The position numbers were made by a program, and so were the translations under genes. Shown one piece after another: positions 9,113 to 35,930 of a stretch of DNA of 38,805 nucleotides. This DNA comes from a virus, in UHGV virus genome UHGV-0123934; one strand, 5' to 3'. The notes under the pieces were generated by a model, which was given only the letters and a program-made list of their open reading frames with translations, did no database searches and was not told the origin of the DNA. Numbering within the stretch: the stretch's first letter is position 1; every line of letters begins with the position of its first letter.

Positions 9113-9143
9113 TGCGGACAATTTGTGAGAGCTTAAATGATAT

Positions 9144-12236: not shown

Positions 12237-12815
12237 ATGAAACTACGAATTCCAAACTCGGAAGTTCAAGAACTTCTAACCGACAAGTCTTTTGAGTATC
12301 CTAAATACGCGACTCAAATTATGAACTTGGCGAATCAAAATGCACAAGGTACTCGTCCGAATATTGTAGGTCAAATGAGCGACCTGATTCAAGAATTCGG
12401 AGCGGGATCGATGATTGAATGGGATGCTTGGTATAAGAACGGTCACCCGGAAGCGATTAAGACTGCAACCGAACGAGTATATCGGATGATTGAATTATTT
12501 AAAGAGAGTATTCAGACCATCGATAAGGATATGGTCCGAAAATGGATCGAAGAGCTTGTTGTTGTCAAAACTTATTGCGGATTAAAATTCCAAGAGGCCA
12601 TTCTCCGTAAAATTGCAGAAGAAAAGCAGTCGGACTACAGATTGGCGACCCCAGAAGAAGAAGCACAAGGTATAGATGGATTCATTGGAAATTCCCCGGT
12701 TAGTATCAAGCCGATCACGTATCGGATTATGAATGAACTACCGGAGCACATCGATGTGCCGATTATTTACTATGACAAGAAGAAATCAGAAATAGTGGTT
12801 GAATATAATTTTTGA
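12237..12815 (+). CDS. putative type II restriction endonuclease (or REase subunit)
   Basis: 192-aa AT-rich ORF convergent with the DNA methyltransferase in the same island; call rests on gene context only. Confidence 0.35.
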   Translation: MKLRIPNSEVQELLTDKSFEYPKYATQIMNLANQNAQGTRPNIVGQMSDLIQEFGAGSMIEWDAWYKNGHPEAIKTATERVYRMIELFKESIQTIDKDMVRKWIEELVVVKTYCGLKFQEAILRKIAEEKQSDYRLATPEEEAQGIDGFIGNSPVSIKPITYRIMNELPEHIDVPIIYYDKKKSEIVVEYNF

Positions 12816-12819
12816 TATT

Positions 12820-13440
12820 ATGCCATATACTGGAGGACCATTGAATACATTAAATGGGAAAATGGGTATTTCTGCTCCGGAGAATAGTGTACCTGTTATG
12901 AAATTAATTCGCATACATCATCCTAAAAGTAAAGAGGAATTAGTCGAATTAATAAAATGGCATTCTGAAAACAAGTGTGAATGCGGTATTATTAGTAGAG
13001 GAACGGTTGAACAATTTGGGAAAAATTTATATGAAGCTCAAAAAGCATTTTGGGGAGAATATAAATTTTCATTAGCAATATGCATCCAATGGGAATATGA
13101 TTTATTTGTTTTACAATCATTAAAAGGTTCTTTGGTTGAAGATGCTGCTATTAGGACTTTAGAGACCCAATTAGAGCCTGAATATGCTTTTTTAGAAGCA
13201 ACCGGTTATATGGATGAAGAATTGCGAATTGATATTATTTGCAAATATAACAATAGCATTATTGCCGGCATTCAGGTCAAACCTTTAACATTTTTAATGA
13301 TGAGACGAGAAATTATTACTTATAATGCTATGGCTAATCAAAAATGGGATAAACCTGTATATTATTTATATTATGACGAAAATGAAAATTTCGTAAATAT
13401 TGAAGAAGTAAAGTCTCATTTAAAATCATCGATTCTTTAA
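12820..13440 (+). CDS. hypothetical protein, R-M island (possible second REase subunit or specificity factor)
   Basis: ATG at 12820, 5 nt after the upstream stop; AT-rich; stop overlaps the MTase stop (convergent). Confidence 0.35.
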   Translation: MPYTGGPLNTLNGKMGISAPENSVPVMKLIRIHHPKSKEELVELIKWHSENKCECGIISRGTVEQFGKNLYEAQKAFWGEYKFSLAICIQWEYDLFVLQSLKGSLVEDAAIRTLETQLEPEYAFLEATGYMDEELRIDIICKYNNSIIAGIQVKPLTFLMMRREIITYNAMANQKWDKPVYYLYYDENENFVNIEEVKSHLKSSIL

Positions 13441-14582
13441 AATGTTAATGCAATCTGCGTTCGGGAAGGAATAGAAATAATACGCTTTCTATTCCCTACT
13501 TTTATTTCAGCAGTGACCGGAATAGTGTCCGCATATTCAGCAGTAATCATGTGATTGTTCCCTCTTATTGCAGATAAATAGACGAACCGCATATCTGTTT
13601 CTTGTGAAGTCATGACCGGCATCTGGAGATGCTCGTTGAAATGTTTGATCTCTTTATTTTGCGTTCGTTGCGAAACGAATTCTTTATGTGCTGCTATTCG
13701 ATTAGCAATAACTTCGTTCATTTGGTCAACCGATGATGAATGAATATTATCGGCTATAATATCTATAAACTTATCATCAATTTCATAACCAATACTATTG
13801 CGATTGCTCATGATAGATGCAATCGTAGTTGTACCGGTTCCTAAAAAAGGATCCATTACCGTATCTCCTTGCAACGAATACATATTGATTAGACGGTATG
13901 GAACTTCCAATGGATAGGCTGCACTCCTGTCTCGACTTTCTGCTGATATTTTTTGTTTGGTACCTTTTATATTGTCCCACAAATCGGAAAACCACACATT
14001 GCGTTCCTCCCAAAAGAACGAACTCTCACGGCGTTTCTGTTTGTCTATTGCAGATTTGAATTCGCGTTTACCTCCTTTGCGAAAAATCAAAATCCATTCG
14101 TGTTCCAATGTTACATATGCTCCTGCAGGAAGCATTCCGGACCCCATAAATTTATTTGGAGCATTCGTTTGCTTCCTCCAAATAATGTTTGGAAGATTTA
14201 CATACCCGTGAGCGGTGAAATAGTTAATTATACGGGAATGATTGGAGTATAAAGCAAAATTGCCATTGAATGTTCGCGTCGCATCACCGACATTGATACA
14301 GACGATTCCACCCGGGACAAGGACACGTGTCACCTCATCCCATACTTTATCCAGCTCTTGATGCATTAATTCAAAAGCCGCATCCGGCTGGTTTTCATCA
14401 AGGGCATTTGCAATACAAGGATTTTGTTTGCTTAATATCTCATCCCACATTTGAATCATGGGATATGGCGGAGATGTAACGACTAACTCGACCGAGTTGT
14501 CATTAATTTCTTTCATCTGTTGGGCAGCCCCAGTATATATGCTATGCGTTGTCTTCATAATTTCAAAGCAAAGATAATTCAT
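13437..14582 (-). CDS. DNA methyltransferase, beta-class amino-MTase (N4-cytosine or N6-adenine)
   Basis: Motif IV TSPPY near the N-terminus and motif I DPFLGTGTT further C-terminal (IV before I = beta class). Confidence 0.85.
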   Translation of the reverse strand: MNYLCFEIMKTTHSIYTGAAQQMKEINDNSVELVVTSPPYPMIQMWDEILSKQNPCIANALDENQPDAAFELMHQELDKVWDEVTRVLVPGGIVCINVGDATRTFNGNFALYSNHSRIINYFTAHGYVNLPNIIWRKQTNAPNKFMGSGMLPAGAYVTLEHEWILIFRKGGKREFKSAIDKQKRRESSFFWEERNVWFSDLWDNIKGTKQKISAESRDRSAAYPLEVPYRLINMYSLQGDTVMDPFLGTGTTTIASIMSNRNSIGYEIDDKFIDIIADNIHSSSVDQMNEVIANRIAAHKEFVSQRTQNKEIKHFNEHLQMPVMTSQETDMRFVYLSAIRGNNHMITAEYADTIPVTAEIKVGNRKRIISIPSRTQIALTF

Positions 14583-14694: not shown

Positions 14695-15894
14695 ATGAGC
14701 AAACTGAAAACCCTTAAAGAGAGCCGTGCTGCCGTGTTCGCAAAGATCGACGAGTTGCGTACCGCGACCGACGGTCGCGAGATGACCTCCGAGGAGCAGG
14801 AGAGGTGGAACACGCTGCTTGCGGAGTACGAGCAGGCCGACCGAGCTGTCGAAGCCGAGGAGCGCTACGTCGATATCGAGCGCCGGCAAGCCGAGCAGCA
14901 GTATGTTCGACAGACTTCCGGCGAGCAGCCCGACGAACGTCGTGCCGAGGAGTACCGCACCGCTTTCCGCGACTACCTGCTGCGCGGCGCAGCGGATATT
15001 TCGCCCGAGCACCGGACACTCTTCGAGCAGCGCGCCGGCATCACGGGTTTGTCGGGCGGCGTGATCGTCCCTTCGTCGCTGGCCGACAGCATCGAGGTTG
15101 CGCTGAAAGCCTACGGCGGGATGTTCGAGGCGGGTTCCATTCTCACCACGAGTAAGGGCGGCGACCTGATTATGCCGACGGTAAACGATACCGATGCGAG
15201 GGCTACGGTCGTTGCCGAATACCAGCAGTCGACCAAGTCCGCACCGTCGTTCGGCTCCGAAACGCTCAAAGCCTATACCTACCGCACGCCCATCGTTCCC
15301 GTGTCGTTGGAGCTGTTGCAGGACTCGGCATTCGACCTCGAATCGCTGCTCTCGGGTCTGCTGGCCGAGTCGTTCGGACGGGGCATCAACTACGACCTTA
15401 CGCGCGGCGACGGCAAGGGCAAACCCAAGGGCATCGTCGAGTGGGCGCACGCCTGTGCTACTAACCCCTCTGCTGCAGGCATCTCGCTCGATGCTCTGAT
15501 CGAGCTCGTCAAGGGCGTGGATTCCTCCTATGCCCGACACGGGCGGTTCATGTTCAACCGCAATACGCTCTACTCGCTCGTCAAGATCAAGGATACGACG
15601 GGACGCTACATCTGGCAGGAGGGTGCGAAGGACGGCACGCCGCCGACCTTGTTCGGCAAGGCGTATATCCTGAACGACGACCTCGACGATGCCGCAGCGG
15701 GCAAGACTTCGGTGTTGTTCGGCGACTTCTCGAAGTTCAAGATCCGTATGGTCCGATCGTTCCGCGTGATCCGCCTGAACGAGCTGCTCGCCGAGTACCT
15801 TTCGATCGGGCTGTTCGGCTTCGCCCGCACGGACGGCATCCTGTTGGACGCCGGTACGCACCCCGTCCATAAGTTGGTGCATAAATCGGCGTAG
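14695..15894 (+). CDS. phage major capsid protein (HK97 family) with N-terminal coiled-coil delta domain
   Basis: ATG 14695 inside ORF 14623..15894; charged coiled-coil N-terminus then capsid-like core; position after prohead protease. Confidence 0.85.
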   Translation: MSKLKTLKESRAAVFAKIDELRTATDGREMTSEEQERWNTLLAEYEQADRAVEAEERYVDIERRQAEQQYVRQTSGEQPDERRAEEYRTAFRDYLLRGAADISPEHRTLFEQRAGITGLSGGVIVPSSLADSIEVALKAYGGMFEAGSILTTSKGGDLIMPTVNDTDARATVVAEYQQSTKSAPSFGSETLKAYTYRTPIVPVSLELLQDSAFDLESLLSGLLAESFGRGINYDLTRGDGKGKPKGIVEWAHACATNPSAAGISLDALIELVKGVDSSYARHGRFMFNRNTLYSLVKIKDTTGRYIWQEGAKDGTPPTLFGKAYILNDDLDDAAAGKTSVLFGDFSKFKIRMVRSFRVIRLNELLAEYLSIGLFGFARTDGILLDAGTHPVHKLVHKSA

Positions 15895-15897
15895 GGT

Positions 15898-16434
15898 ATG
15901 ACGGTAATCGAGATGCGGGAGCCGCCGATCGCGTTGGAACTCGCCAAGCAGCACCTGCGGGTAGGCAGCGCCACCCATGACGATACTTTGATCGCTGCGA
16001 AACTCGACATGGCCGTTGCCGTGGCGGAGGATATGACAGGACGGACCATTCGGGAGAAGAGGGTACGGTTCGACGTATCGATCCCCTCCGACGCTCCCAT
16101 CGTCCGCCTGCCCGTCCCTACGACGCGCATCGAGCGGCTCTCCGTCTCTCGAACCATCGTTCCCGAATCCGACTACACGCTTTTGGAAGACGACTACGAC
16201 CCGATGCTGATTGCTGAGCCGCAGTACGGCGGACAGACTGCGACGGTTACGGCCGTCGTCGGCTACGATCGCGATAATATACCTCCGGCAATCAAGGCGG
16301 CTATTCTCTTGATCTTGGGTACGCTCTACGACAACGAATCGGACAATCTGGTCGGCCGCTCCGTCTCGGAGCTGTCGCTCACGGCCGAAAAACTCCTGCT
16401 TCCGTGGCGGGTAACTCCTTACGGCGATGTTTGA
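15898..16434 (+). CDS. head-tail connector (gp6-like DNA packaging) protein
   Basis: Start ELAKQHLRV...TGRTI typical of gp6-like connectors; directly after the capsid gene. Confidence 0.7.
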   Translation: MTVIEMREPPIALELAKQHLRVGSATHDDTLIAAKLDMAVAVAEDMTGRTIREKRVRFDVSIPSDAPIVRLPVPTTRIERLSVSRTIVPESDYTLLEDDYDPMLIAEPQYGGQTATVTAVVGYDRDNIPPAIKAAILLILGTLYDNESDNLVGRSVSELSLTAEKLLLPWRVTPYGDV

Positions 16435-16744
16435 CACGCGCATCGAAATCCTCGACTACACCGAGGAGCGGGATGAGTACAACGACCTCACGAAATCGCT
16501 CCGGCGCGTCGCCGTCTGCTACGCCCAGCGTACCGAGAACGGCGGTCGGGAAAACCTCTACGCCGGACGCATCGTCCACGAGAACGAAACGGTCTATACG
16601 ATCCGTTGGCAATCCGACCTGCGCCCCGATATGGTCGTTCGCGACGAGGGGTATCTGCGGAAGATAACTTCGATCCACGAGGAGGGACGCCGCTGGCGCC
16701 TGCACCTCAAATGCCGGAAGAGCGATGCTGACGATCGAGGTTGA
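16427..16744 (+). CDS. phage head closure / head-tail adaptor protein
   Basis: 105-aa protein overlapping the connector stop; size and position typical of SPP1 gp16-like head closure proteins. Confidence 0.65.
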   Translation: MFDTRIEILDYTEERDEYNDLTKSLRRVAVCYAQRTENGGRENLYAGRIVHENETVYTIRWQSDLRPDMVVRDEGYLRKITSIHEEGRRWRLHLKCRKSDADDRG

Positions 16745-17249
16745 AGGTTATGCCGAAGCCAAACGGATTCTGGACGAGCTGCCGAACACGATGCAGAAAC
16801 GGATGCTGCTTGCAGCTCTGCGCGCCTCGGCCAAACCGATGTTGCAATCGGCACGGAGCAAAGTTCCCGTCCGCACGGGCAAACTGAAGAAGCAGTTGCG
16901 CACGGTTCGCTACAAGGACCGCAACGCTTCGAAGTCGGAGGTGGCCATCGCCGTGAAGCCGGTCTTCGAACGCACGAAGAAGAAAGGCACCGTGAACGAA
17001 TACTACGGCAAGTTCATCCACGAGGGGACTGCCGATCCTCGCACTTCGAAAAAGGGCAGGCTGCTGGTCTTCGACGATGTGCAGGGTAAAAAGGTCTTCG
17101 TCCATAGCGTAAAGGGCATCCGGCCGACGCCTTATTTGGAGCAGGCTTATACGGAGAACTCCGAGCGTACGGTCGCACTTTTCGGCGACGAGTTGGCTGC
17201 TGCGGTCGAGAAGTTCGTGAATAAAAACTTCAAACCGGTATCGAAATGA
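16725..17249 (+). CDS. HK97 gp10-like phage protein
   Basis: PVRTGKLKKQL motif, size and synteny. Confidence 0.6.
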   Translation: MLTIEVEGYAEAKRILDELPNTMQKRMLLAALRASAKPMLQSARSKVPVRTGKLKKQLRTVRYKDRNASKSEVAIAVKPVFERTKKKGTVNEYYGKFIHEGTADPRTSKKGRLLVFDDVQGKKVFVHSVKGIRPTPYLEQAYTENSERTVALFGDELAAAVEKFVNKNFKPVSK

Positions 17250-17602
17250 TGGATTTCAAGAAACATCTGATCGCGCTTTTGGAGCGTGAGATTCCAGAAT
17301 TGGCGGATAAGATTCAAGCCGGTGCGGTCGATGCCCGGACGCCTGCGCCTTTCGCCGCGTTCTCCGTACCGGAAGAGACGCCCGTAAGGACGCTACACGG
17401 CATCGTCGGCTATCGGACGATGTTCGAGGTAGCGGTCTATGACAGCAGGTTCTCCGGTGCGGAACGCCTCAAGCATCGGGTGATCGCCGCCTTGGAGGGT
17501 GCGGAGTTCGACGGCAAGCGCAGCCGCTTCGTCTCCTCGGCGGCGGAATACTATGCAGACTACGACGTGCACGGTGCGACGATGACATTCAGAATTGTTT
17601 AA
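17246..17602 (+). CDS. putative tail completion/terminator protein
   Basis: 118-aa ORF overlapping upstream stop (ATGA), last gene of the head-tail joining block; no motif. Confidence 0.4.
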   Translation: MMDFKKHLIALLEREIPELADKIQAGAVDARTPAPFAAFSVPEETPVRTLHGIVGYRTMFEVAVYDSRFSGAERLKHRVIAALEGAEFDGKRSRFVSSAAEYYADYDVHGATMTFRIV

Positions 17603-18242
17603 CCCAATCCGTAAAATCGAGTTTTATGAGTTGCCAGATTTTATTTTCAAGACAAACAGGGTCGGGATCACCATCCGCTCTCGTAAAATCGGTCAATCCC
17701 GCAAGGCATTCTTCGCGCGATGCTCCGTAGGGATATCGTGCTGCGTATAAAGCGAGCAGCTGCTCGATAGAATAGGCATTATGAAGAAGATGCAAATCCC
17801 AAAAGTCCTTTTTACGGCCGCCGCGGGCGATAACATCCATCTTCATCGCAACGATGTCGTCTACGGACGCCATACGGATCGTATCGTGCTGCTCTGCCGG
17901 GCGGATGAAGTCATCCGTATAGAACAGGTCGAGTTTTACGGACTTTTCCCGGTTCTGTCCGATGATATATGAGGCCCCGAAGCCGACGATTTCTCCGCAA
18001 TCACCCTGACAATAAGGAAACTCTTTGCGCAGAATATCCTGCAATTTATGGAAATCCAAAGATCTATACTCGGCATCGGTAAATAGATCTATATCGTCGG
18101 ACATACGATGTCCATAGCGCAAACTGAGCGAGGTGCCGCCGACAAGGCGGAACGGGGCGAATGCTTCGAGAGTCATCAGATGTTCGAGTGACGACCGCAG
18201 AATGGGTTTGACAGTATGGTATTGCAACGCTTTATGCTTCAT
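17589..18242 (-). CDS. nucleotidyltransferase, AbiEii/AbiGii toxin-like (DUF1814-like)
   Basis: N-terminal FRLVGGTSLSLRYGHRMSDDIDLF (GGT...S.DIDL polymerase-beta-like NTase signature); start overlaps upstream partner. Confidence 0.75.
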   Translation of the reverse strand: MKHKALQYHTVKPILRSSLEHLMTLEAFAPFRLVGGTSLSLRYGHRMSDDIDLFTDAEYRSLDFHKLQDILRKEFPYCQGDCGEIVGFGASYIIGQNREKSVKLDLFYTDDFIRPAEQHDTIRMASVDDIVAMKMDVIARGGRKKDFWDLHLLHNAYSIEQLLALYAARYPYGASREECLAGLTDFTRADGDPDPVCLENKIWQLIKLDFTDWVKQF

Positions 18243-18753
18243 AATCGAGATATTGCTTCAGGTTCTTTTTGATAACCGATGAGAATGGAGATGACGGCGA
18301 TAATCCGATCTTGCTTAAAATGGTTTCTCGACCATAAAAACGGATGGTTTCGATGATCTCTTCTTCATTGCCTCGCTCCATTACGCGATTGATAACGTAA
18401 CTGCTATGGGCATCCCAATTGATATTGTCGAACGATGTGTCCCAAAACAGGGAAGGTCGGTATTTTTCGAGATCCGGATGGTGAGCGGACGAAAGTTTTC
18501 GCTTCTCCTGCACAATGTCGTAGTGAACCTGCAGGGTCATGAGTATGCCTTCCTCTAATGCGAGCGCATGTTCGATTCGCAACGACAGCGGAATATTCAT
18601 CGACCTGCGGCCGCGAATAATGGCGCTTATGGTTTGGGGGTGCTCACCGATAGATTTAGCGAACCGACCGCTTTTCAGGTTTCGATTATTCAGCTCGCGT
18701 TGTAAGAAGAGTCCCGGATGTACTCCTTTCAGTATGTCGATTAAATTGTTCAT
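18232..18753 (-). CDS. HigA-like HTH antitoxin/regulator with C-terminal extension
   Basis: VHPGLFLQREL ... ISAIIRGRRSMNIPLSLRIEHALALEEGILMTLQVHYDI resembles the HigA/VapI antidote HTH; 11-nt overlap with the NTase gene; ATG at 18753 (track start 18762 is TTG). Confidence 0.6.
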   Translation of the reverse strand: MNNLIDILKGVHPGLFLQRELNNRNLKSGRFAKSIGEHPQTISAIIRGRRSMNIPLSLRIEHALALEEGILMTLQVHYDIVQEKRKLSSAHHPDLEKYRPSLFWDTSFDNINWDAHSSYVINRVMERGNEEEIIETIRFYGRETILSKIGLSPSSPFSSVIKKNLKQYLDYEA

Positions 18754-18817
18754 ACAACGCAAAAGTAAACATATTTGTTTATTTTAACAAATTTTATGCC
18801 GAAATATTTTTACGCTT

Positions 18818-19258
18818 ATGCCTGAAACTTACGGAAACAAACAGGTCGTCCAAGGCGAGGACATCATCCTCTTGGTGGACGATAAGACGACGCTCCACGC
18901 CACGACGCACACGCTGAAGGTGGATTTGGAGATGAAAGAACTGCGCACGAAAGATACTGACGGCAAAGAGAAGTGGCCGGGCGATGTTTCGTGGTCGGTG
19001 GACGGCGACGGACTGGTGGTCATCGACGATTCGATCGAGAACAGCCATACCGCCGAGGAAGTCCTCGACTTGGTGCTTCAAAAGAAACTCGTCGAGGTGG
19101 TCGTCAAATCGCCGCTCACGGGACTCGCGAAGATGTACACGGGCAAAGCCTACATCACGACATTCTCGCTCTCGACGCCTGCGGGCGATAACGCTTCTTA
19201 CAGTTATTCGCTTACCGGCAGCGGCAACCTGACACCTGTAGACAAACCTAAATCCTGA
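18818..19258 (+). CDS. phage major tail protein (TP901-1/phi13-like)
   Basis: C-terminal YTGKAYITTFSLSTPAGDNASYSYSLTGSGNL typical of siphovirus major tail proteins. Confidence 0.8.
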   Translation: MPETYGNKQVVQGEDIILLVDDKTTLHATTHTLKVDLEMKELRTKDTDGKEKWPGDVSWSVDGDGLVVIDDSIENSHTAEEVLDLVLQKKLVEVVVKSPLTGLAKMYTGKAYITTFSLSTPAGDNASYSYSLTGSGNLTPVDKPKS

Positions 19259-19263
19259 CCGCA

Positions 19264-19623
19264 ATGAAAGAGATCATCATTCAAGGTACGCCGCGTCCGA
19301 TCCATTTCGGACTGCGCGCCATCGACGAGTTCGTCAAGCAGCGCGGTGCGGAGTTCGGGCAGACGGTCGCTTCGACCGACGCTCTCGGATCGCTGGACAG
19401 CATCGTTGCGCTGACCGCTACGGGTCTCAACGAGGGCGCACGGCGTGCCGACAGCGACCGTCGCTACACCGAAGACGAGGTGTGGGACATCTTCGACGAG
19501 GAGCCGTCGCTCATCCTCGCTGTCTCGGAACTCTTCGTTGAGAGCATCGCGCCGCTGACGGATAAGTTGGGCGACCTCTCAAAAAACGGGAAACGCCCGA
19601 CGACGGGGAGCCGCAAGCGGTAA
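19264..19623 (+). CDS. tail assembly chaperone (gpG-like)
   Basis: 119-aa acidic protein right after the major tail gene; slippery heptamer near its 3' end. Confidence 0.6.
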   Translation: MKEIIIQGTPRPIHFGLRAIDEFVKQRGAEFGQTVASTDALGSLDSIVALTATGLNEGARRADSDRRYTEDEVWDIFDEEPSLILAVSELFVESIAPLTDKLGDLSKNGKRPTTGSRKR

Positions 19624-19946
19624 CCTACGAGCGGTGGTTCGCCATCGCCGTCGGGCAGATGGGACTGGCACCCGAAGCCTTCGAACGCCTGACGCCCGCC
19701 GAGTTCATCTATGCGTGGCTCGGCTGGGCGAAACGCGAGGAAGACCGGCAGCGGCAGGCATGGGAGCGCGAACGGTGGGCGGTATGGGTTACGACTTGCA
19801 TCCAGCTTGACCGCAAAGACCGCCGACCGATGACCGAGATGTTCCCGCTGCCGTGGGAGGAACCGACGGCTCCCGCAAAGCAAGAACCGACCATGCAGGA
19901 ACGCATGGAACGAATCGAAGAAATGAAACGATGTATCCGAAAATAA
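19264..19946 (+). CDS. tail assembly chaperone G-T fusion via predicted -1 programmed ribosomal frameshift
   Basis: A_AAA_AAC heptamer at 19581-19587 in the gpG frame; the -1 frame is open from the slip site through ORF 19659..19946 (KKRETPDDGEPQAVTYERWFAIAVGQMGLAPEAFERL...). Confidence 0.55.
19581..19587 (+). other. -1 slippery heptanucleotide A_AAA_AAC
   Basis: Codons tca aaa aac in the gpG frame; manual frame tracing shows no stop in the -1 frame downstream. Confidence 0.55.
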
Positions 19947-20440
19947 CCTTGATTATCCTGACGATCGCAGCCAGCGGCTGCTCTCCGCTCCGAAGCACGC
20001 GATCCGAGCGGCACGAAACGCTTGCCATCTCCGACTCGACTGTTACGGAACTGGTCCGGCAGGAGTTCGGGCGGCAGATCGGAACGCTCCGCCGAACCGT
20101 CGTGGAGTTTTATCCGCCGACGGAATATCCGGAACCGAGCGACGATCGATTCCCGAATCCGATCGATACGCTCCGTGCCGTTCTTTCGCCTCCGAAAATT
20201 CCGGCGGCGAGCGCTTCCCGACAGCCGGTCAAACGCATCTCCTATACCGAGGTATCGATGCAGAATGACCGAACTATCCTTATCGACAGCATTTCGCATA
20301 GCCGCATCAACACGGCAGCCCGCAACGACGTGCAGGAGCAGACCGACGAGCAACCATCCTCCGGTGTCGCGTGGCTCAAATGGGCGACGGCGCTCGTCGC
20401 ACTGACGCTTCTGCTGCTCTTATTCCTCAAACTCCGATAA
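19931..20440 (+). CDS. putative lipoprotein with C-terminal membrane anchor
   Basis: ATG 19931 inside ORF 19853..20440; signal peptide with lipobox LTIAASGC; C-terminal hydrophobic helix WATALVALTLLLLLFL. Confidence 0.5.
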   Translation: MYPKITLIILTIAASGCSPLRSTRSERHETLAISDSTVTELVRQEFGRQIGTLRRTVVEFYPPTEYPEPSDDRFPNPIDTLRAVLSPPKIPAASASRQPVKRISYTEVSMQNDRTILIDSISHSRINTAARNDVQEQTDEQPSSGVAWLKWATALVALTLLLLLFLKLR

Positions 20441-20450
20441 CCGAACCCAT

Positions 20451-21233
20451 ATGGCAAGATTGAAAACTCCGATTTCATACTATGGCGGCAAGCAGATGCT
20501 TTTGAAGCATATCCTGCCGCTGATTCCCGAACATACGCTCTACACGGAAGCCTTCTGCGGCGGCTGCGCCGTGCTGTTCGCCAAGCCGCCCGCGCAGTGC
20601 GAAGTCATCAACGACACGAACACCGAATTGGTGAACTTCTACCGCGTGGCGCAGACCCAGTATGCGGCACTCAAGGCGATGATCGACGCGACGCTCCACA
20701 GCCGCGAGATACACGCGCACGCACGGCATATCAACGAGCATCCGTCGTTCTTCACGCCCGTCGAGCGGGCTTGGGCTGTATGGGTCTGCACGAAGTTGGG
20801 CTTCGCCTCGATGATCGACGGAACGTTCGGCTACGACCGCAGCGGTACGACGACGCTGAAACTCCGCAATGCGAAAGAGGCCTTCACCGAGGAGTTGTGC
20901 GGACGCCTCGGCCGCGTTACGGTCGAGTGCGAGGACGGCATCGATGTCATCCGCCGCTACGACTGTCCCGAGGCGTTCCACTTCGTCGATCCGCCCTATG
21001 TCGGCAGCGACTGCGGACACTACAACGGTACGTTCGACGAGGAGGATTTTTCGAGGCTGCTCGACACGCTCGCAACGGTCGAAGGGAAGTTCATGCTCAC
21101 GATGTTTCCGCACGAGAAGATCGAACGCCTCGCCGCCCGGCACGGCTGGACGATCCATCGGCTCGACCGCACCATCACCGCCTCGAAAGTTTCCCGCCGC
21201 CGGCAGGAGGAGTGGATTACGACGAACTACTGA
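20451..21233 (+). CDS. dam: DNA adenine methyltransferase (Dam-like, alpha class)
   Basis: N-terminal ISYYGGKQMLLKHILPLIP...EAFCGGCAVLF and motif IV FVDPPY. Confidence 0.85.
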   Translation: MARLKTPISYYGGKQMLLKHILPLIPEHTLYTEAFCGGCAVLFAKPPAQCEVINDTNTELVNFYRVAQTQYAALKAMIDATLHSREIHAHARHINEHPSFFTPVERAWAVWVCTKLGFASMIDGTFGYDRSGTTTLKLRNAKEAFTEELCGRLGRVTVECEDGIDVIRRYDCPEAFHFVDPPYVGSDCGHYNGTFDEEDFSRLLDTLATVEGKFMLTMFPHEKIERLAARHGWTIHRLDRTITASKVSRRRQEEWITTNY

Positions 21234-21240
21234 TACCGAC

Positions 21241-22017
21241 GTGGGTACATTCGCTTACGATAACCCCGCTTACATCGCTTCGTGCTCGTTCGGCAAGGAT
21301 TCGATCGCTACGATCCTCCTTGCCCTCGAATATGGCGAGCCGCTCGATGCCGCTGTCTTTTCGGAGGTGATGTTCGACCATCGGCGCAATATCAGCGGCG
21401 AGATGCCCGAACACATCGAGTGGATCTATTCGACGGCGATTCCGCGTCTTGCCGCCTTGGGCGTACGGGTCGATGTCGTCCGTTCGGAGAAAGACTATCT
21501 TACGTTATTCCATACGGTCATAGGGAGCAGTACGCATAAGGGTATGCTGCGCGGCTGGCTCATCGGCGGCAAGTGCTGCGCCAATCGCGACCTCAAAATC
21601 CGGCCTATACATCGCTATTATGCCCGTTATCGAGAGCAAGGCATCGTGCAGTACGTCGGCATCGCGGCCGACGAACCGAGACGCCTCGCGCGGATGCAGG
21701 ACAAAGGGTATAACCGTAAAACGAGTCTGCTCGCCAAGTACGGGTACACCGAGGCGGACGCCCGACGCAAGTGCGAAGAATACGGTCTGCTGTCGCCTCT
21801 CTACCGCACCTCGCATCGGGGCGGTTGCTGGTTCTGCCCCAACTGTCGCATTCCGGTCTTCGCCGAACTGCGCCGCCGCCATCCTGAATTGTGGCGTGAA
21901 CTGCAACTGCTTTCGAAGGTCGGAAATAAGTCCTCCGAAGGTTTCAAATACGGGCTGACTTTCGAGGAGGTCGAGCGGCGGATGGATCTCTTCGAACACT
22001 CACCGACGCCATTCTAA
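21241..22017 (+). CDS. PP-loop ATPase, PAPS reductase/QueC-like family protein
   Basis: PP-loop SFGKDS near the N-terminus, C-terminal Cys cluster GGCWFCPNC; start uncertain (GTG 21241 is the first start after the dam stop). Confidence 0.65.
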   Translation: MGTFAYDNPAYIASCSFGKDSIATILLALEYGEPLDAAVFSEVMFDHRRNISGEMPEHIEWIYSTAIPRLAALGVRVDVVRSEKDYLTLFHTVIGSSTHKGMLRGWLIGGKCCANRDLKIRPIHRYYARYREQGIVQYVGIAADEPRRLARMQDKGYNRKTSLLAKYGYTEADARRKCEEYGLLSPLYRTSHRGGCWFCPNCRIPVFAELRRRHPELWRELQLLSKVGNKSSEGFKYGLTFEEVERRMDLFEHSPTPF

Positions 22018-22020
22018 ACA

Positions 22021-22105
22021 ACTGAAAATAAATACGATAATAGTCGCCGAATAACTTGCGTGTTCCGAATAACGATGTTATGTTTGTCATGCAATAAACA
22101 ACTAA
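22021..22105 (+). promoter_or_regulatory. Promoter/leader repeat copy 1 (-33 TTG 22056-22058, -7 TAtgTTTG 22079-22086)
   Basis: Conserved about 85-bp element also at 22497, 23311, 23957 and 24588; motif spacing 20 nt fits the Bacteroidota sigma promoter pattern. Confidence 0.6.
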
Positions 22106-22118
22106 AATAGAGCGAATT

Positions 22119-22422
22119 ATGAAAAAGACAGTCATCGTGAAAGGCGAGCGTCGCAAGGTAGAATTCGAGTATCGAGTAATCGATAAATTGGTTAGTTGCC
22201 AAAAAGCAAACGATGGGATAAGCAGGGGGATGGCTTCCGGTCGAAACCTATTACCACGAAGCCGTTGCCATTATCGACGGTGTAGAATATCCGAGCGTTC
22301 GACGCTGGCATACCAATGGCGGCAGGTATTCGGAACAGTTCTTTTACAACGGACATTTCTATGATTCGTATAAGAAAATGATCGAGCGCATTCTCGAATC
22401 GGCAGACGAAAGTAACTCTTGA
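22119..22422 (+). pseudogene. small gene apparently frameshifted at a G5 run (or a sequencing indel)
   Basis: Frame 0 ORF 22119..22364 loses protein-like character after the G5 run at 22225-22229; the +1 frame continues as a convincing sequence (WLPVETYYHEAVAIIDGVEYPSVRRWHTNGGRYSEQFFYNGHFYDSYKKMIERILESADESNS) to a stop at 22420-22422. Confidence 0.45.
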
Positions 22423-22444
22423 ACCTCGATGGAAGCAGATGGAA

Positions 22445-22475
22445 AAACAGGCTCCGTACGGAGCCTGTTTCGATC
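22445..22475 (+). terminator. putative intrinsic terminator
   Basis: Perfect 10-bp stem aacaggctcc/ggagcctgtt with gtac loop, followed by tttcg. Confidence 0.5.
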
Positions 22476-22496
22476 TTTCGCTGTAAGCGTAAATAA

Positions 22497-22580
22497 CTGA
22501 AAATAAATATGATAATAGTTACCGGATAACTTGTGTGTTCCGAATAACGATGTTATGTTTGCAGTACGATAAACAACTGA
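22497..22580 (+). promoter_or_regulatory. Promoter/leader repeat copy 2 (-7 TAtgTTTG 22554-22561)
   Basis: Near-identical to copy 1. Confidence 0.6.
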
Positions 22581-22606
22581 ATAATAGACGATTAAAACAC
22601 CCGAAC

Positions 22607-23029
22607 ATGACAAGTGCACAGGCAAAACAGATCGCATCGAACTATATGCGGCAGCAGAGCGATTATGTATTTTCGGCGGTAACGGTTAAAAGCCTCGCTC
22701 CGGCGAACGGACCAGTCAAGGTGTGGCTCACCACCGAAGACGACTACGGGGACGAACTGATCGTCGAGGTCGAGATGGACCCGCAGTCGAATGAGATCCG
22801 CTGGAAGAAGATCTGCAACACGGGACGCCTATCCGAATATCTGAAGCCGGCTACTCGGATCGATAAACTTTCGGCGGGGCAGCGCTTCCGGCTGCAAGGC
22901 GACTGCGTGGTTTACGAGTTCGTGGACAATGTAAAGGACCGCAGCAATATTCCCTATATCATCCGACGGGCAGACCGATCCGGTTGCGTATCGAGAGTCG
23001 GATGGCAGGAAGTTTTTCCTATCGAGTAA
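22607..23029 (+). CDS. hypothetical small protein
   Basis: ATG 22607 downstream of promoter copy 2 (ORF track start 22535 lies inside the promoter repeat). Confidence 0.5.
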   Translation: MTSAQAKQIASNYMRQQSDYVFSAVTVKSLAPANGPVKVWLTTEDDYGDELIVEVEMDPQSNEIRWKKICNTGRLSEYLKPATRIDKLSAGQRFRLQGDCVVYEFVDNVKDRSNIPYIIRRADRSGCVSRVGWQEVFPIE

Positions 23030-23081
23030 CCGATAACCGCGCACCTTGCCGAAAGGCAGGTGCGCATAAAACGATACGACG

Positions 23082-23312
23082 ATGAAACTCCGCCGAACGA
23101 AAACCGGAACTTACACGATTGCTGGTATTACCGCAACTCAATATCGCACCCTTGCGGCAGTGCTTATGACCGCCGATGAGCGTTGCTTCGACGAACAGGA
23201 CGAGGACGGCAACTATTACAGCAACGACGATTTCGTCTGCTCGCTCGATGGCGATGAACGGGTGGCTTTGCGACAGGTGTGCGACGCACTTCGGCAACGT
23301 GTAAAATATTGA
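23082..23312 (+). CDS. hypothetical small acidic protein
   Basis: 76-aa ORF; preceded by hairpin with GAAA loop (23037-23065). Confidence 0.4.
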   Translation: MKLRRTKTGTYTIAGITATQYRTLAAVLMTADERCFDEQDEDGNYYSNDDFVCSLDGDERVALRQVCDALRQRVKY

Positions 23313-23390
23313 AAATAAATGCGATAATAATTAATGGAAAACTTGCGTGTCCCGAATTATGATGCCATCTTTGCAGTGCAATAAACAACT
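23311..23390 (+). promoter_or_regulatory. Promoter/leader repeat copy 3 (degenerate -7)
   Basis: Shares aacttgcgtgt and gcagtgcaataaacaact cores with the other copies. Confidence 0.5.
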
Positions 23391-23405
23391 AATATAGAGC
23401 GCATT

Positions 23406-23738
23406 ATGAGTACAAGAGCAAGAATCGGCGTAAGACTTCCCGACGGAAAAATCAAAAGCATTCATATATGGCGGGACGGACATCCCGATACGTTGGGCGA
23501 AACATTGTCAGCGCACTACAACACATTGGAAACGGCAATGGCACTGGTCGAACGAGGCAACATAATCGATGTGGAAGCACGTCTCGAAGAGTGCCGGTTC
23601 GAGAAATCGAATGAACGGTACGATACCGAGCCTCGGATTTATGAATCGGTTGCCGCCTATGAACGAGAAATCGAGGAGGATATATGTTACAAATATCTCT
23701 ATCGGGACGGCAAGTGGGAATACCGGGCGGTCGATTAG
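23406..23738 (+). CDS. hypothetical small protein
   Basis: 110-aa ORF with ATG start downstream of promoter copy 3. Confidence 0.5.
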   Translation: MSTRARIGVRLPDGKIKSIHIWRDGHPDTLGETLSAHYNTLETAMALVERGNIIDVEARLEECRFEKSNERYDTEPRIYESVAAYEREIEEDICYKYLYRDGKWEYRAVD

Positions 23739-23772
23739 TAACCGACTTCCGATCGTAAGGAGCGAATGCTCC

Positions 23773-23802
23773 GAGCCTCCGACGGGAGGCTTTCTCTCGT
23801 TT
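23773..23802 (+). terminator. putative intrinsic terminator
   Basis: Stem agcctcc/ggaggct, loop gacg, then T-rich ttctctcgttt. Confidence 0.5.
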
Positions 23803-25094: not shown

Positions 25095-25133
25095 GCCGGA
25101 GCCGCATTATGTGCGGCTCCGGTATTTTATTTT
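25095..25133 (+). terminator. intrinsic terminator preceded by inverted leader motif cagttgtttattgca (25080-25094)
   Basis: Perfect 11-bp stem ccggagccgca/tgcggctccgg, 5-nt loop, then attttatttt. Confidence 0.7.
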
Positions 25134-25175
25134 GTATGTAAATAATGATTAAATTTGTAACGAAAACAGAATACG

Positions 25176-26216
25176 ATGAAAGCCTATACCTATATCGAAC
25201 ACGGGCGGTTCGAGCTGCTCGACAAGCCGGAACCCGCCTTGCAGGACCCTCGCGACGCCATCGTGCGCGTGACGCTCGCGAGCATTTGTACCAGCGACCT
25301 GCATATCAAGCACGGCAGCGTACCCCGCGCCATTGAGGGCATCACCGTCGGCCACGAGATGGTCGGCATCGTCGAGGAGGTCGGGTCGGAGGTGCGCAGC
25401 GTAAAGGTCGGCGACCGCGTGACGGTCAACGTCGAGACCTTCTGCGGCGAATGCTTCTTCTGCAAGCGCGGCTACGTGAACAACTGCACCGATCCCGACG
25501 GAGGCTGGGCACTTGGCTGCCGCATCGACGGCGGGCAGGCGGAGTATGTCCGCGTGCCGCATGCCGATCAAGGGTTGAACCGCATTCCCGATACGGTGAG
25601 CGACGAGCAGGCATTGTTCGTGGGCGATATTCTGGCTACAGGTTATTGGGCGGCGAAGATTTCGGAGATTGCGCCCGACGACACGGTCCTGATTATCGGT
25701 GCCGGACCGACGGGTATCTGCACGCTGCTTTGCGCAAGATTGAAGCGCCCGAAGCGAATCATCGTCTGCGAAAAATCGCCCGAACGGCGGCGATTCGTGC
25801 GGGAACACTATCCCGAGGTGCTGACGGTCGCACCGGAGGAGTGTCGCGAGGCGGTTTATGCGAACAGCGACCGTGGTGGCGCCGACGTCGTGCTGGAGGT
25901 GGCCGGTGCGGAGGATACGTTTCGCCTGGCGTGGGAGTGCGCCCGCTCCAATGCGACGGTTGTTATTGTTGCGCTCTACGACCGGCCGCAGATGTTGCCG
26001 CTGCCCGACATGTACGGCAAGAACCTCACCTTCAAGACGGGCGGCGTAGATGGCTGCGACTGCGCCGAGATACTCCGGCTGATCGAGGCGGGCGAGATTG
26101 ACACCACGCCGCTCATCACGCACTGTTATCCGCTCGGCCGCATCGCCGAGGCATACGACCTCTTCGAAAACCGCCGCGACGGAGCGATCAAGGTGGCTAT
26201 CGATTGTACCGAATAG
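25176..26216 (+). CDS. zinc-dependent alcohol dehydrogenase family protein (MDR superfamily)
   Basis: Catalytic-zinc signature GHEMVGIVEEVG, structural-zinc Cys cluster CGECFFCKRGYVNNC, Rossmann motif LIIGAGPTG. Confidence 0.85.
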   Translation: MKAYTYIEHGRFELLDKPEPALQDPRDAIVRVTLASICTSDLHIKHGSVPRAIEGITVGHEMVGIVEEVGSEVRSVKVGDRVTVNVETFCGECFFCKRGYVNNCTDPDGGWALGCRIDGGQAEYVRVPHADQGLNRIPDTVSDEQALFVGDILATGYWAAKISEIAPDDTVLIIGAGPTGICTLLCARLKRPKRIIVCEKSPERRRFVREHYPEVLTVAPEECREAVYANSDRGGADVVLEVAGAEDTFRLAWECARSNATVVIVALYDRPQMLPLPDMYGKNLTFKTGGVDGCDCAEILRLIEAGEIDTTPLITHCYPLGRIAEAYDLFENRRDGAIKVAIDCTE

Positions 26217-26241
26217 AGGTATGTATCCGCGCGATAATATT

Positions 26242-26943
26242 TCACGTCAGCGTCCACCCCTTGTCTGTTGCGATCGCTTTTTGGATAGCATTCAGTTTCG
26301 CGAGGTTCTTCGCTCCGATATTGCAGGTCTTGCCATTGCCGGTATCGGATAGCGCGTTCAACAGGAATACCAAACTCTCTACCATGAGTTTCGGACAGCC
26401 GTTCACGGCGATGTCTACATTGACGGGGCCGTCGATGATTACCGTTTCGAGTGCGGAGCAGGAGACGAACGTCGTGTCGATCTTCGATGTTACCTTGCTG
26501 AAGTCAAGTCTTCCGCCGATTTTACGCAGGCTCTTGCAGCCGTGGAACATCTCCGAAGCGGAAGTAATGCGCGAGGTGTCCAGTCCGCCGATCTCCTGCA
26601 AGTTCGTACAACCGTAGAAAGCATACATCATATTCGCGACGTTCGAGGTGTCGAGCGTCGGCACACGCTCCAGCGCCGTACAGCCGTAGCACATCTGATA
26701 CATCGAATCGAACGACGCTGTGTCGAGTGCCGGAAATACCGACATCGTCGTATTGCCCCGAAAGAGCTGGTAGCCGTTGCGGATCTGATTCATTCCGCTG
26801 GTGCTGTCCACCAATGCGACTTTATCGACGAGCGATACCAACGTCTCTTCGTCGGTTATCGCCACGCCTTTGTCGCGTAGCGCCCCGGCAAGGTGCTGCC
26901 GCAGCGCATCGAGCCGCAAAACGAGTGAAGTAAAGTCTGCCAT
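26242..26943 (-). CDS. BspA-type leucine-rich repeat protein (putative tail-associated adhesin/receptor-binding component)
   Basis: Tandem repeats of the F.GC..L..I...DTS....M..F.GC type (MCYGCTALERVPTLDTSNVANMMYAFYGCTNLQEIGGLDTSRITSASEMFHGCKSLRKIG). Confidence 0.65.
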   Translation of the reverse strand: MADFTSLVLRLDALRQHLAGALRDKGVAITDEETLVSLVDKVALVDSTSGMNQIRNGYQLFRGNTTMSVFPALDTASFDSMYQMCYGCTALERVPTLDTSNVANMMYAFYGCTNLQEIGGLDTSRITSASEMFHGCKSLRKIGGRLDFSKVTSKIDTTFVSCSALETVIIDGPVNVDIAVNGCPKLMVESLVFLLNALSDTGNGKTCNIGAKNLAKLNAIQKAIATDKGWTLT

Positions 26944-26946
26944 ACG

Positions 26947-27180
26947 CTATCCGATAATATGGTTCAGTGCCTCCTCGATGCCCGTCAGTCCGAGCGAAGC
27001 GGTCATCGCATCGACCAACGTCGCATAAGTTACGGCAGCACCCGTACCGTTGCGGTCGATTTCGATAAGGTCGGTGGCTGCCAAAGTCGTCACCTTCGGG
27101 AGTTGAGAGAGCGTGATCGTATCGGTATCCGATCCGGTTGCAAGCCGTCCTATAATCGCCCCTGTTTGTTCTGTTGCCAT
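26947..27180 (-). CDS. hypothetical small protein (tail fibre module)
   Basis: 77-aa ORF tightly packed between the tail fibre and LRR genes. Confidence 0.4.
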   Translation of the reverse strand: MATEQTGAIIGRLATGSDTDTITLSQLPKVTTLAATDLIEIDRNGTGAAVTYATLVDAMTASLGLTGIEEALNHIIG

Positions 27181-27184
27181 AATT

Positions 27185-29323: not shown

Positions 29324-29671
29324 AACGACGTGAAAATAACGCTTCGCCGAACCTTTTTCGGGATACAAAGTCCCTAATTCCGAAGAATGCCTTATCTTTG
29401 TAATTGCATTCCGCTCTGTCGGGATGCGACATATTATTCGACTTAACCTCGGAAAAAACTGGTAATTTTTTAGCAAATGGTTAAGCACTCCGTATCCTCG
29501 CATCGAACGGCTCCTGCCGTAAGGTTCGGGATATGGTCATATCCCTGCTTTACGGCGTGGGCTATACGTGCTTATCATTTGCAGGTATACCAGTACCTTT
29601 CCGAGATAGGCGGCAGTAGGCCCACGTTCTTTTTTGTCCGGCGGACAGACGCGATCCTATCTGCCATTTCG

Positions 29672-30181
29672 ATGATTATGAAAGCAACGAATCGAATACC
29701 GGATCGCCGTGTCGTGCGACCGTTGACCGCACGGATATTGCGGTCGTTTCTGGTGGCGTCGGAACGCTCGCATCACCATATTTATGCGCTGTGGGAACAC
29801 GCATCGATCCTGTCATTTGCGATAAAGAATGCAGACGGCGAATATTTGTCTTTGCGAGAGTTTTTCAGCAAGGGCGATGCGGTTGCGCCCGACGATCCGC
29901 TCATCGTCATCTTCCACGAAATGCATATCGAAACCGTGGAAGAATTGACCGCTGAATATATCGAACGCATTTATGAATCGTTTCTCTACCATCATTGCGA
30001 GATGGAATTGCGCCGCAACGCCCCGCTCCGTTTGACTCCGGAATCGATACGACGATACGGCTTGACCGAGGCGGATGCTGTCCTTGTCGGCGAGCATCTC
30101 GAAGTCCTGAACGAGATGATCCGTCGGAAACTCCAGCGGCAATACGACGAACTCAAAGCCTTGGATTGCATTCGGAAGTAG
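29672..30181 (+). CDS. hypothetical protein
   Basis: ATG 29672 inside ORF 29477..30181; GC-rich, divergent from the tail fibre gene, upstream of the SIR2-NTPase gene. Confidence 0.4.
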   Translation: MIMKATNRIPDRRVVRPLTARILRSFLVASERSHHHIYALWEHASILSFAIKNADGEYLSLREFFSKGDAVAPDDPLIVIFHEMHIETVEELTAEYIERIYESFLYHHCEMELRRNAPLRLTPESIRRYGLTEADAVLVGEHLEVLNEMIRRKLQRQYDELKALDCIRK

Positions 30182-30255
30182 TATTTTAAGTACTATCATA
30201 AGTTTTATGGAGTAGATTCTCATTCTTTTTTGCTGGAAATTGCGAAATAAAGAAG

Positions 30256-30279
30256 ATTTTGCTATTTTTATAGCAAAAT
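30256..30279 (+). promoter_or_regulatory. perfect 10-bp inverted repeat attttgctat-tttt-atagcaaaat, operator-like, 8 nt upstream of the SIR2-NTPase start
   Basis: Read directly from the sequence. Confidence 0.5.
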
Positions 30280-30287
30280 AATATAAT

Positions 30288-35143: not shown

Positions 35144-35551
35144 TTAGGGTTTGTGTTGCAGATAGAGCATCCAGCCGGCCTCGACATCCGATAGTACCGC
35201 CGACCGCCCGTTTTCCACACGCGATATAGCCGCCACGATGGGGATCATCGTTTCGCCCTCCTGCGTATCTACCGGCTCGTCGGCGCCGATGCCCGACCAC
35301 TCGGCCACGCAACGGATATAGTTCTCGGTATGGTTCTCGACGGGCGGAGCGTAGCGCGAGATCATCTGCCGGATTGTCCGGTAACCCTTGCGGGAGTAGG
35401 AGTCCAGCAGCACGAACATCGCGCGGTAGCCCCACGCCATCGTCTCGAATTGCTTGAATGCCGTATCGCGCGAGGGCGCAACTTCGCCCAGATACTTCGT
35501 CGCCGACCGGCGGATATTGCCGGGATTACGATTGCTCAGTCCTCTGCTCAT
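35144..35551 (-). CDS. hypothetical protein (NPGNIR motif; possible lysis or virion protein)
   Basis: ATG at 35551 (upstream part of ORF 35144..35755 is low-complexity S/R-rich and overlaps the neighbouring gene). Confidence 0.4.
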   Translation of the reverse strand: MSRGLSNRNPGNIRRSATKYLGEVAPSRDTAFKQFETMAWGYRAMFVLLDSYSRKGYRTIRQMISRYAPPVENHTENYIRCVAEWSGIGADEPVDTQEGETMIPIVAAISRVENGRSAVLSDVEAGWMLYLQHKP

Positions 35552-35555: not shown

Positions 35556-35930
35556 TTATGATTTTCGGTTATTCTCGTCGTTCTCTTTGCGCTTGCGCTC
35601 CAACTCGGCTCTTTTGAGCAAGACCGGGCAATGTTCGGGCGGCGTTTCGCACTTGTAGGCCTGTCGGATGACGATGCGGCTGCGATCGATTTCCACGTCC
35701 TTGTGCTCGATGATGATTTCGAGTTTGCCGACCTTCTCTTCGAGTTTCTCCACACGCCCGTCCAGCCGCGTGATCTGCTCGGACTGGATCGCTACGACTT
35801 TCTCCGTGTTCGCTAATTCGGCGGAGTCGGCGGCCGCGTTCTCCTTGCGTTTCTTCGCGTTGAAAAAGAGAATCGTTCCCGCCAGACCGCTGGCGAGAAT
35901 GAAGTTCAGAATGATGGATAGTGTTTCCAT
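35556..35930 (-). CDS. membrane-anchored coiled-coil protein (holin/spanin-like candidate)
   Basis: N-terminal hydrophobic helix LSIILNFILASGLAGTILFF followed by a charged coiled coil. Confidence 0.45.
   Translation of the reverse strand: METLSIILNFILASGLAGTILFFNAKKRKENAAADSAELANTEKVVAIQSEQITRLDGRVEKLEEKVGKLEIIIEHKDVEIDRSRIVIRQAYKCETPPEHCPVLLKRAELERKRKENDENNRKS

Follow-up and report, generated by a model that had tools for sequence, protein, structure and literature searches.

The slot that follows the G and GT tail assembly chaperones of a phage normally holds the tape measure gene. In the 38,805 nucleotides (nt) of virus genome UHGV-0123934 analysed here (the window) this slot is taken by a short gene at 19931-20440 whose product has the hallmarks of a lipoprotein, and the tape measure protein (TMP) gene lies 12.3 kb away on the strand opposite to the chaperones. 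The locus therefore raises the question of what this lipoprotein does and how it came to follow the chaperones. Homologues of the window's genes are found in Alistipes contigs of 0.2-1 Mb, and the window represents the greater part of an Alistipes prophage, an HK97-like siphophage. From the analysis of its sequence the gene quite probably encodes a spanin-type lysis protein with the topology of a unimolecular spanin (u-spanin), which has been displaced from its partner lysis genes, and the strongest evidence for a role in lysis comes from comparative genomics.

The open reading frame (ORF) of 169 amino acids (aa) runs on the + strand from an ATG at 19931 to a TAA at 20438-20440. Its N-terminus reads MYPKITLIILTIAASG-C17-SPL, in which a short basic n-region (K4) is followed by a 10-residue hydrophobic core and an A-S-G-C lipobox, with cleavage predicted between ASG and C17 on the basis of pattern, hydropathy and conservation; the residues past the cysteine are Ser at +2, Pro at +3 and Leu at +4. 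At the other end of the protein W148-L166 (WLKWATALVALTLLLLLFL) reaches a Kyte-Doolittle maximum of 2.76 (15-aa window) and is followed by K-L-R. The lipobox and C-terminal helix that the initial annotation had read from this gene are thus borne out by pattern, by hydropathy and by the conservation of both C17 and the transmembrane domain (TMD), and no other ORF across the whole window has a credible lipobox. The exported middle part is ~129 aa long (118-141 aa across the family) and has no Cys in the window protein. It holds two conserved periplasmic segments, residues 18-61, which include the motif QTVVEFYPP, and residues 98-135, which include VKRIxYTE...DSISHSRINTAAR; indels and low conservation are restricted to the Pro-rich linker between them (alignments A1 and A2).

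An AlphaFold2 (AF2) model of the lipoprotein, based on a 68-sequence alignment, has a mean pLDDT of 59 and a pTM of 0.20, values too low for a fold search to be meaningful. The terminal helix (144-168) is confident, with pLDDT of 87-93, and joins short strands (52-60, 101-112 and 115-121) and helices (37-49, 77-84 and 123-132) in a low-confidence model from which a globular fold is absent. Such a model is compatible with an extended protein that would span the periplasm, although it proves nothing.

A u-spanin is defined by an N-terminal outer-membrane lipoprotein signal together with a single C-terminal TMD, and the prototype, gp11 of phage T1, complements a lambda Rz/Rz1 defect (PMC6139136). 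Both elements are found here, the outer-membrane lipoprotein signal from pattern and conservation and the single C-terminal TMD from hydropathy, conservation and the AF2 helix; the initial annotation had recorded the two features without making use of their combination, which is the definition of a u-spanin. In the 2018 survey Bacteroides phage B124-14 was listed as spanin-less (PMC6139136). The 2025 survey has Bacteroidetes phages using only unimolecular spanins (PMC12596118) and a u-spanin would therefore be expected in a phage of Alistipes.

A search with one sequence retrieved 145 homologues of the lipoprotein and a profile search 352, with identities of 32-94%, and all of them come from gut metagenomes or from genomes of Alistipes/Bacteroidales. 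All 68 aligned sequences have C17, P19 and L20 are likewise invariant, and in the 131 full-length unique members of the family the residue before the cysteine is always G, S or A and the +2 residue is S in 110, A in 13, G in 7 and N in one. W148, L149 and W151 of the TMD are conserved and the net charge past the TMD core is positive in 118/131 members. The ratio of non-synonymous to synonymous substitution rates (dN/dS) of the gene is 0.21-0.35, indicating purifying selection, which together with the conservation rules out both a remnant of a TMP gene and a chance ORF in GC-rich DNA; the protein is far too short for a TMP and has no match to a TMP PHROG or Pfam family. Two further ORFs that overlap the gene, 19709-20353 (-, antisense) and 20022-20405 (+, in the +1 frame), are taken as spurious. 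A role of the C-terminal helix as a sorting signal of the PEP-CTERM/GlyGly-CTERM type was considered and dropped, there being no NCBIfam sorting-domain match at E <= 1.

Scans of the lipoprotein against Pfam, PHROGs, NCBIfam and PADLOC gave no match, nor did tblastn against 50,697 deposited phage records, and blastn of the surrounding 7.5 kb against deposited phages returned a methyltransferase fragment only. The best deposited relative of the window capsid is 34% identical, so that no named phage can be used as a reference, and comparisons were made with related loci instead. Among 114 usable loci retrieved via the tail tube protein, and hence independently of the lipoprotein, 103 have an ORF of 155-194 aa with a lipobox and a C-terminal TMD after G/T, most of the others being misses of the filter (CPGC, FPGC and CSC lipoboxes) or one frameshifted copy. 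The lipoprotein gene is therefore a core gene of this uncultured lineage of Alistipes siphophages, and the defence/moron islands around it differ between loci. In Alistipes genomes the family, with at least 350 proteins and more than 100 contigs, is labelled "hypothetical".

The link to lysis comes from the relatives in which the gene stands elsewhere. In three loci (L111, L113 and L114) no lipoprotein gene follows the chaperones and the TMP gene directly follows T. For one of these, contig IMGVR_UViG_2841319695_000004, the rest of the contig was recovered (loci L142 and L167), and there a homologue of the lipoprotein (43% identity, E 6e-31) is found after the lysozyme gene, its start overlapping the lysozyme stop codon, on the strand opposite to T and TMP. 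The order of this cassette is a homologue of the window's 954-aa protein, a gene for a TMD/coiled-coil protein, lysozyme and lipoprotein, followed by a D12 methyltransferase gene. The window has its own copies of the first three of these on the minus strand. Its lysozyme-like protein matches the structures PDB 7q47 'Endolysin' (1.8e-8) and 9vvp Gp29 (1.3e-15) and contains neither a TMD nor a signal-arrest-release (SAR) segment, from which it follows that the phage uses the classical multi-step route to lysis. The 124-aa TMD/coiled-coil protein is encoded immediately upstream of the lysozyme in all relatives and is 65-78% identical among them, above most neighbouring genes; family scans gave no informative match for it, and from its sequence it is a candidate holin or i-spanin-like partner.

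A survey centred on the lysozyme covered 74 usable IMG/VR loci with lysozymes that are 52-94% identical, many of them preceded by multi-TMD holin-like ORFs. These lysis-cassette-like contexts indicate that the 135-aa lysozyme is the endolysin of a lysis cassette. In 30/74 loci a lipobox ORF that also has a C-terminal TMD begins between -30 and +187 nt from the lysozyme stop, and these 30 ORFs fall into 6 mutually unrelated sequence clusters, which from sequence comparison argues for a lysis role of this class of topology. One of them, in L251, is a remote member of the lipoprotein family (hmmsearch 6.8e-8) and has a homologue of the TMD/coiled-coil gene upstream. The position of last gene of a lysis cassette is thus seen in L167 and L251, but not in the window.

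The survey also turned up a second type of gene after the endolysin. In 20/74 loci, including L236, L254, L255, L262, L264, L279 and L288, this position is held by a gene for a protein of 155-195 aa whose N-terminus carries a TMD and whose Gly-rich C-terminus ends in an aromatic residue (e.g. ...GIGGFYRIW). Such a C-terminus resembles an outer-membrane beta-signal, and these proteins may represent a 'reverse-anchored' class of envelope-spanning lysis proteins in phages of gut Bacteroidales.

The same comparison suggests how the lipoprotein came to occupy the tape-measure slot. In L142/L167 the genes G and T lead into TMP and the tail genes, and the opposite strand carries, in order of transcription, integrase, the 954-aa gene, TMD protein, lysozyme, lipoprotein and methyltransferase. 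The window differs at two junctions, T/lipoprotein (19931-19946) and lysozyme/TMP (35137-35144), and this pair of swapped junctions is consistent with the pattern expected from inversion of a segment that has the TMP gene at one end and the lipoprotein gene at the other. Because the L142 arrangement keeps both the chaperone-to-TMP and the endolysin-to-spanin adjacencies, we infer that it is the ancestral one; the lipoprotein would then stand after the chaperones because the lysis cassette and the T-to-TMP junction have recombined. Both junctions of this rearrangement are documented in one contig, and the T/lipoprotein adjacency is fixed in ~110 related loci and is not peculiar to the window. 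The initial annotation had placed a rearrangement breakpoint at this gene, overlapping the 3' end of the chaperone gene where a tape measure gene is expected. The overlap with the T ORF is 16 nt, the real TMP gene is found on the minus strand (Table 1), and as the two junctions match the pattern of an inversion the breakpoint was rightly called.

There is also a second rearrangement. A module from ~25123 to 38805, which comprises the genes for the 954-aa protein, the TMD protein, lysozyme, TMP, a 772-aa tail protein and an LRR protein and has its right junction ~35 nt past the window end, lies in the opposite orientation in relatives with more than 93% nucleotide identity such as L025 and L028, so that all late genes are co-linear there. 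The inverted state is that of the window and of Alistipes genome contigs; in several IMG/VR contigs the module is co-linear with the head genes, and both orientations occur within the closest clade (the window compared with L025, L028, L188, L192 and L053-L061). The left junction coincides with a very strong intrinsic-terminator hairpin at 25095-25123 (+), with a 13-bp stem including 9 GC pairs followed by ATTTTATTTT; co-linear relatives retain the hairpin and have the T-run replaced. The cargo beside the junctions differs as well, with ADH and anti-repressor genes in the window arrangement and neither of these, but a divergent integrase instead, in the co-linear relatives. Inverted repeats were looked for at both ends of this 13.7-kb inversion and not found. 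As the junction sequences have only the hairpin, no inverted repeats and differing cargo, a simple site-specific switch is rejected. The end of the window coincides with the GTG start of the 954-aa gene, and a second integrase and an anti-repressor lie just past it, as judged from Alistipes contig L016 (4347-6261).

It had been proposed in the initial annotation that the lipoprotein may mediate superinfection exclusion by blocking receptors or DNA entry. It would then be an envelope protein, expressed from the prophage, that blocks the receptor or DNA-entry channel of incoming related phages. Lipoproteins of this kind include T5 Llp, phi80/N15 Cor and the TP-J34 Ltp-type proteins; Llp and Cor block FhuA, and their expression is early or from the prophage. 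They share with the window gene a phage-encoded lipoprotein signal peptide, the window gene is likewise prophage-encoded, and as the fastest-diverging gene of its conserved block (32-40% identity against 50-83% in its neighbours) it has the divergence that would fit a protein interacting with host or phage. To our knowledge, however, the known exclusion lipoproteins are small outer-membrane proteins that have no C-terminal TMD, whereas the window protein has a conserved second anchor, and its gene is a core gene of the late structural operon, keeps a fixed position in essentially all relatives and is linked to the lysozyme in relatives, with a homologue translationally coupled to the lysozyme gene. 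The marks of a moron are absent too. The GC content of the gene is 0.584, near that of the neighbouring phage genes, as opposed to 0.31-0.47 for the morons, and motif prediction gave no unit with its own expression signals: no + strand terminator is predicted within 15545-23773 and no sigma-70-type or Bacteroidetes-type (TTTG...TAnnTTTG) promoter motif was found upstream of the gene. Given the core-like GC content, the overlap with T and the lack of a terminator or promoter of its own, the lipoprotein gene is predicted to be co-transcribed with the late structural genes, and transcription in a late operon would fit a lysis protein rather than an exclusion factor expressed in lysogeny. The lack of PADLOC, PHROG and Pfam matches also speaks against exclusion, and fast divergence is equally typical of spanins (PMC6139136). 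Superinfection exclusion or receptor blocking is therefore disfavoured, though not refuted, and we regard it as quite unlikely.

T1 gp11 offers the closest known parallel to the layout of the protein: its lipobox is LSGC (ASGC in the window) with Ser at +2, its middle part lacks Cys and basic residues follow its C-terminal TMD, all in 133 aa as against 169 aa; the periplasmic part is ~84 aa in gp11 and ~129 aa with a Pro-rich linker in the window. Genes 13-12-11 of T1 (holin, endolysin and u-spanin) also stand in the same order as the TMD protein, lysozyme and lipoprotein genes of L167. The window differs from the T1 cassette in its Bacteroidota host and in the separation of the gene from the lysozyme. 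Two-component spanins (lambda Rz/Rz1; T4 PseT.3/PseT.2) have the same proposed job of linking the membranes and destroying the outer membrane after peptidoglycan degradation. In contrast to Rz/Rz1 the window polypeptide alone carries both anchors, and there is no separate o-spanin ORF in the window. Spanin genes can lie apart from those for holin and endolysin, as in T4, where PseT.3/PseT.2 are the 'separated' example and in this resemble the window (PMC6139136).

Several observations weigh against a u-spanin. In sequence the lipoprotein resembles neither T1 gp11 nor any PHROG, Pfam or NCBIfam family, and in an hhalign comparison of gp11 with alignment A2 the probability was 0.7% and only the 8-residue lipobox was aligned. 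The AF2 model (pLDDT 59) has mixed helix and strand where mostly beta structure is predicted for gp11. Periplasmic Cys, which is absent from all 58 u-spanins of the published survey (PMC6139136), is lacking in 85 of the 131 family members, but 45 members have one and a single member has two, so that 46/131 are unlike published u-spanins in this respect. In the window the lipoprotein gene is 15 kb from the lysozyme and on the other strand, and its linkage to the lysozyme is drawn from relatives, one contig being close (L167) and one remote (L251). Furthermore Bacteroidota sort lipoproteins by rules other than those known from E. coli, and we know of no demonstration of a doubly anchored lipoprotein in Bacteroidota. 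Membership of the gp11 family has been set at 40% identity or more over at least 40% of the periplasmic domain (PMC6139136); by hhalign the lipoprotein does not reach this, and it thus falls outside the T1 gp11 family and, if a spanin, founds a family of its own.

If the protein does act as a u-spanin, its precursor would be exported by Sec, the C-terminal helix would be held in the inner membrane with the KLR tail in the cytoplasm, and the ~129-aa middle part would cross the periplasm through the peptidoglycan. The lysozyme would reach the wall late in infection, probably released by the 124-aa TMD protein, and once the peptidoglycan had been degraded the tethered lipoprotein would disrupt the outer membrane and complete lysis, presumably by drawing the membranes together or fusing them, as has been proposed for T1 gp11. 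Its lipidation, sorting, timing of expression and membrane-disrupting activity are what we infer, whereas the signals of its topology with their conservation, the purifying selection, the status of a core gene, the place within the late structural transcription unit and the physical link to the lysozyme gene in relatives are seen in the sequences themselves.

It would also be conceivable that the lipoprotein is the outer-membrane subunit of a two-part spanin, with the 124-aa protein as its i-spanin-like partner and its own TMD as an accessory anchor. The 124-aa protein does look i-spanin-like in that it combines a coiled coil with an N-terminal TMD and has two Cys near its C-terminus, and loci L249 and L262 carry an extra small two-TMD holin-like ORF beside the TMD/coiled-coil protein. 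In L252/L274 (positions 3902-4610) the lysozyme gene is followed by a gene similar to that for the 124-aa TMD protein, the 3' half of which is overlapped by a lipobox/TMD gene read in a different frame; this overlap is like that of Rz/Rz1 and also points to a two-part spanin. On the other hand, the KKRK stretch after the TMD of the 124-aa protein predicts, by the positive-inside rule, that the coiled coil would be cytoplasmic; a soluble lysozyme needs a holin and the window cassette has no other TMD protein; and a lipoprotein that has an inner-membrane anchor needs no i-spanin. We therefore hold this arrangement to be improbable. It would nevertheless be a more serious alternative than exclusion, and either way the lipoprotein would act in disruption of the outer membrane at lysis. 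The Rz/Rz1-like overlap in L252/L274 further hints that the lipoprotein and the 124-aa protein could form a hybrid spanin, intermediate between the two-component and unimolecular types, in which an outer-membrane subunit has its own inner-membrane anchor. On this reading, to which we give a low but slightly greater probability, large inversions in this lineage would also repeatedly break up the lysis cassette and join it to the tail module anew. Were this true, lysis and tail genes would have been rewired between transcription units in prophages that are otherwise more than 93% identical.

A last alternative would place the lipoprotein outside lysis altogether, for example as a factor that acts during infection on the envelope of the host, or a partner of the methyltransferase and PAPS-reductase-like genes, with the link to the lysozyme incidental. 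The D12 methyltransferase gene begins 10 nt downstream of the lipoprotein gene in the window and lies directly downstream of it in every arrangement compared, and the lipoprotein has no homology to characterised proteins, both of which would fit such a role. It is, however, hard to see an obvious need of a cytoplasmic DNA methyltransferase for a periplasm-spanning partner, and lipobox/TMD ORFs recur after homologous lysozymes in six unrelated clusters; we consider a non-lysis function very unlikely.

The lysis genes of phages of gut Bacteroidales are almost unannotated, and with the label u-spanin-type the family can be annotated throughout a widespread group of Alistipes prophages; the label also corrects the tempting equation of a prophage lipoprotein with superinfection exclusion. 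A lysis cassette can evidently be split by rearrangement of a structural module, and searches for spanins that rely on gene neighbourhood would therefore miss such genes. What is new is the sequence family and its displaced position; the concept of the u-spanin is established and for a specialist the surprise will be modest.

Table 1. Coordinates of the lipoprotein gene, its parts and the genes discussed with it, as positions in the window.
Feature	Position	Strand	Basis
169-aa lipoprotein with C-terminal TMD; candidate u-spanin	19931..20440	+	ORF, homologues, conservation, dN/dS, GC, lysozyme adjacency in L167/L251
Lipoprotein signal peptide (residues 1-16) and lipidated Cys17 (predicted)	19931..19981	+	hydropathy, pattern, conservation
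Variable Pro-rich linker (~residues 62-97) between conserved segments	20114..20221	+	indels, low conservation, AF2 pLDDT ~50
C-terminal transmembrane helix (~residues 147-166) with basic tail K-L-R	20369..20437	+	hydropathy, conservation, AF2
Major tail (tube) protein	18818..19258	+	PF06199 9.8e-16; phrog_1407 1.5e-23
Tail assembly chaperone G, 119 aa	19264..19623	+	position, frames, sequence
T part of GT chaperone, 95 aa, in -1 frame of G; breakpoint 1 (T/lipoprotein) at 3' end	19659..19946	+	phrog_16333 7.2e-8; frame analysis
D12-class N6-adenine DNA methyltransferase	20451..21233	+	PF02086 1.2e-20; synteny
Tape measure protein, 786 aa	32777..35137	-	phrog_27166 2.5e-54 and 7 other TMP PHROGs
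135-aa soluble lysozyme-like protein, endolysin candidate; 3' end at TMP start is breakpoint 2	35144..35551	-	phrog_873 'endolysin' 7e-40
124-aa protein with N-terminal TMD, KKRK stretch, coiled coil and CxxxxxxC	35556..35930	-	hydropathy; position upstream of lysozyme

The assignment of the two ORFs before the lipoprotein as G/GT tail assembly chaperones follows from a frameshift layout and its conservation. G contains a slippery heptamer, A_AAA_AAC, at 19581-19587 and the -1 frame is open from there; 46/49 distinct relatives keep T in the -1 frame together with an in-frame heptamer of the form X_XXY_YYZ, their heptamers at this site being CCCAAAC, AAAAAAC, GGGAAAC or CCCAAAG. The T ORF also has a faint match to the TIGR02216 rcc01693 family.

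The order of genes on the + strand is an RteC-like gene, a tyrosine recombinase, TerS, TerL, portal, protease, capsid and connector genes, then the major tail protein, the two chaperone ORFs, the lipoprotein, the D12 methyltransferase and a PAPS-reductase-like gene. The RteC-like gene (1-633, +) and the recombinase, which is XerC/D-like (3644-4579, +), both lie upstream of TerS. The PAPS-reductase-like protein (21223-22017, +) matches phrog_424 at 2.6e-31 and, in PADLOC, SspD at 1.2e-10, and together with the D12 methyltransferase it may form a DNA-modification pair in the late operon. On the minus strand the 954-aa protein, the 124-aa TMD protein and lysozyme precede the TMP, which has three internal hydrophobic segments, and the 772-aa tail protein and the LRR protein, which is of the BspA type, follow it.

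Finally, the structural operons are interrupted by low-GC (0.31-0.47) islands of cargo at 8435-10250, 12237-14582, 17589-18762 and 30288-32780. Between TerL and portal there is an HTH/M78-peptidase pair, between protease and capsid a methyltransferase with small ORFs (a restriction-modification-like pair), between the tail terminator and the tube protein an AbiEii/antitoxin pair, and between TMP and the 772-aa tail protein an 830-aa SIR2-STAND (ThsA-like) protein. In relatives the same cargo sites carry RE_MjaI, TIR, LRR-TIR and Fic.

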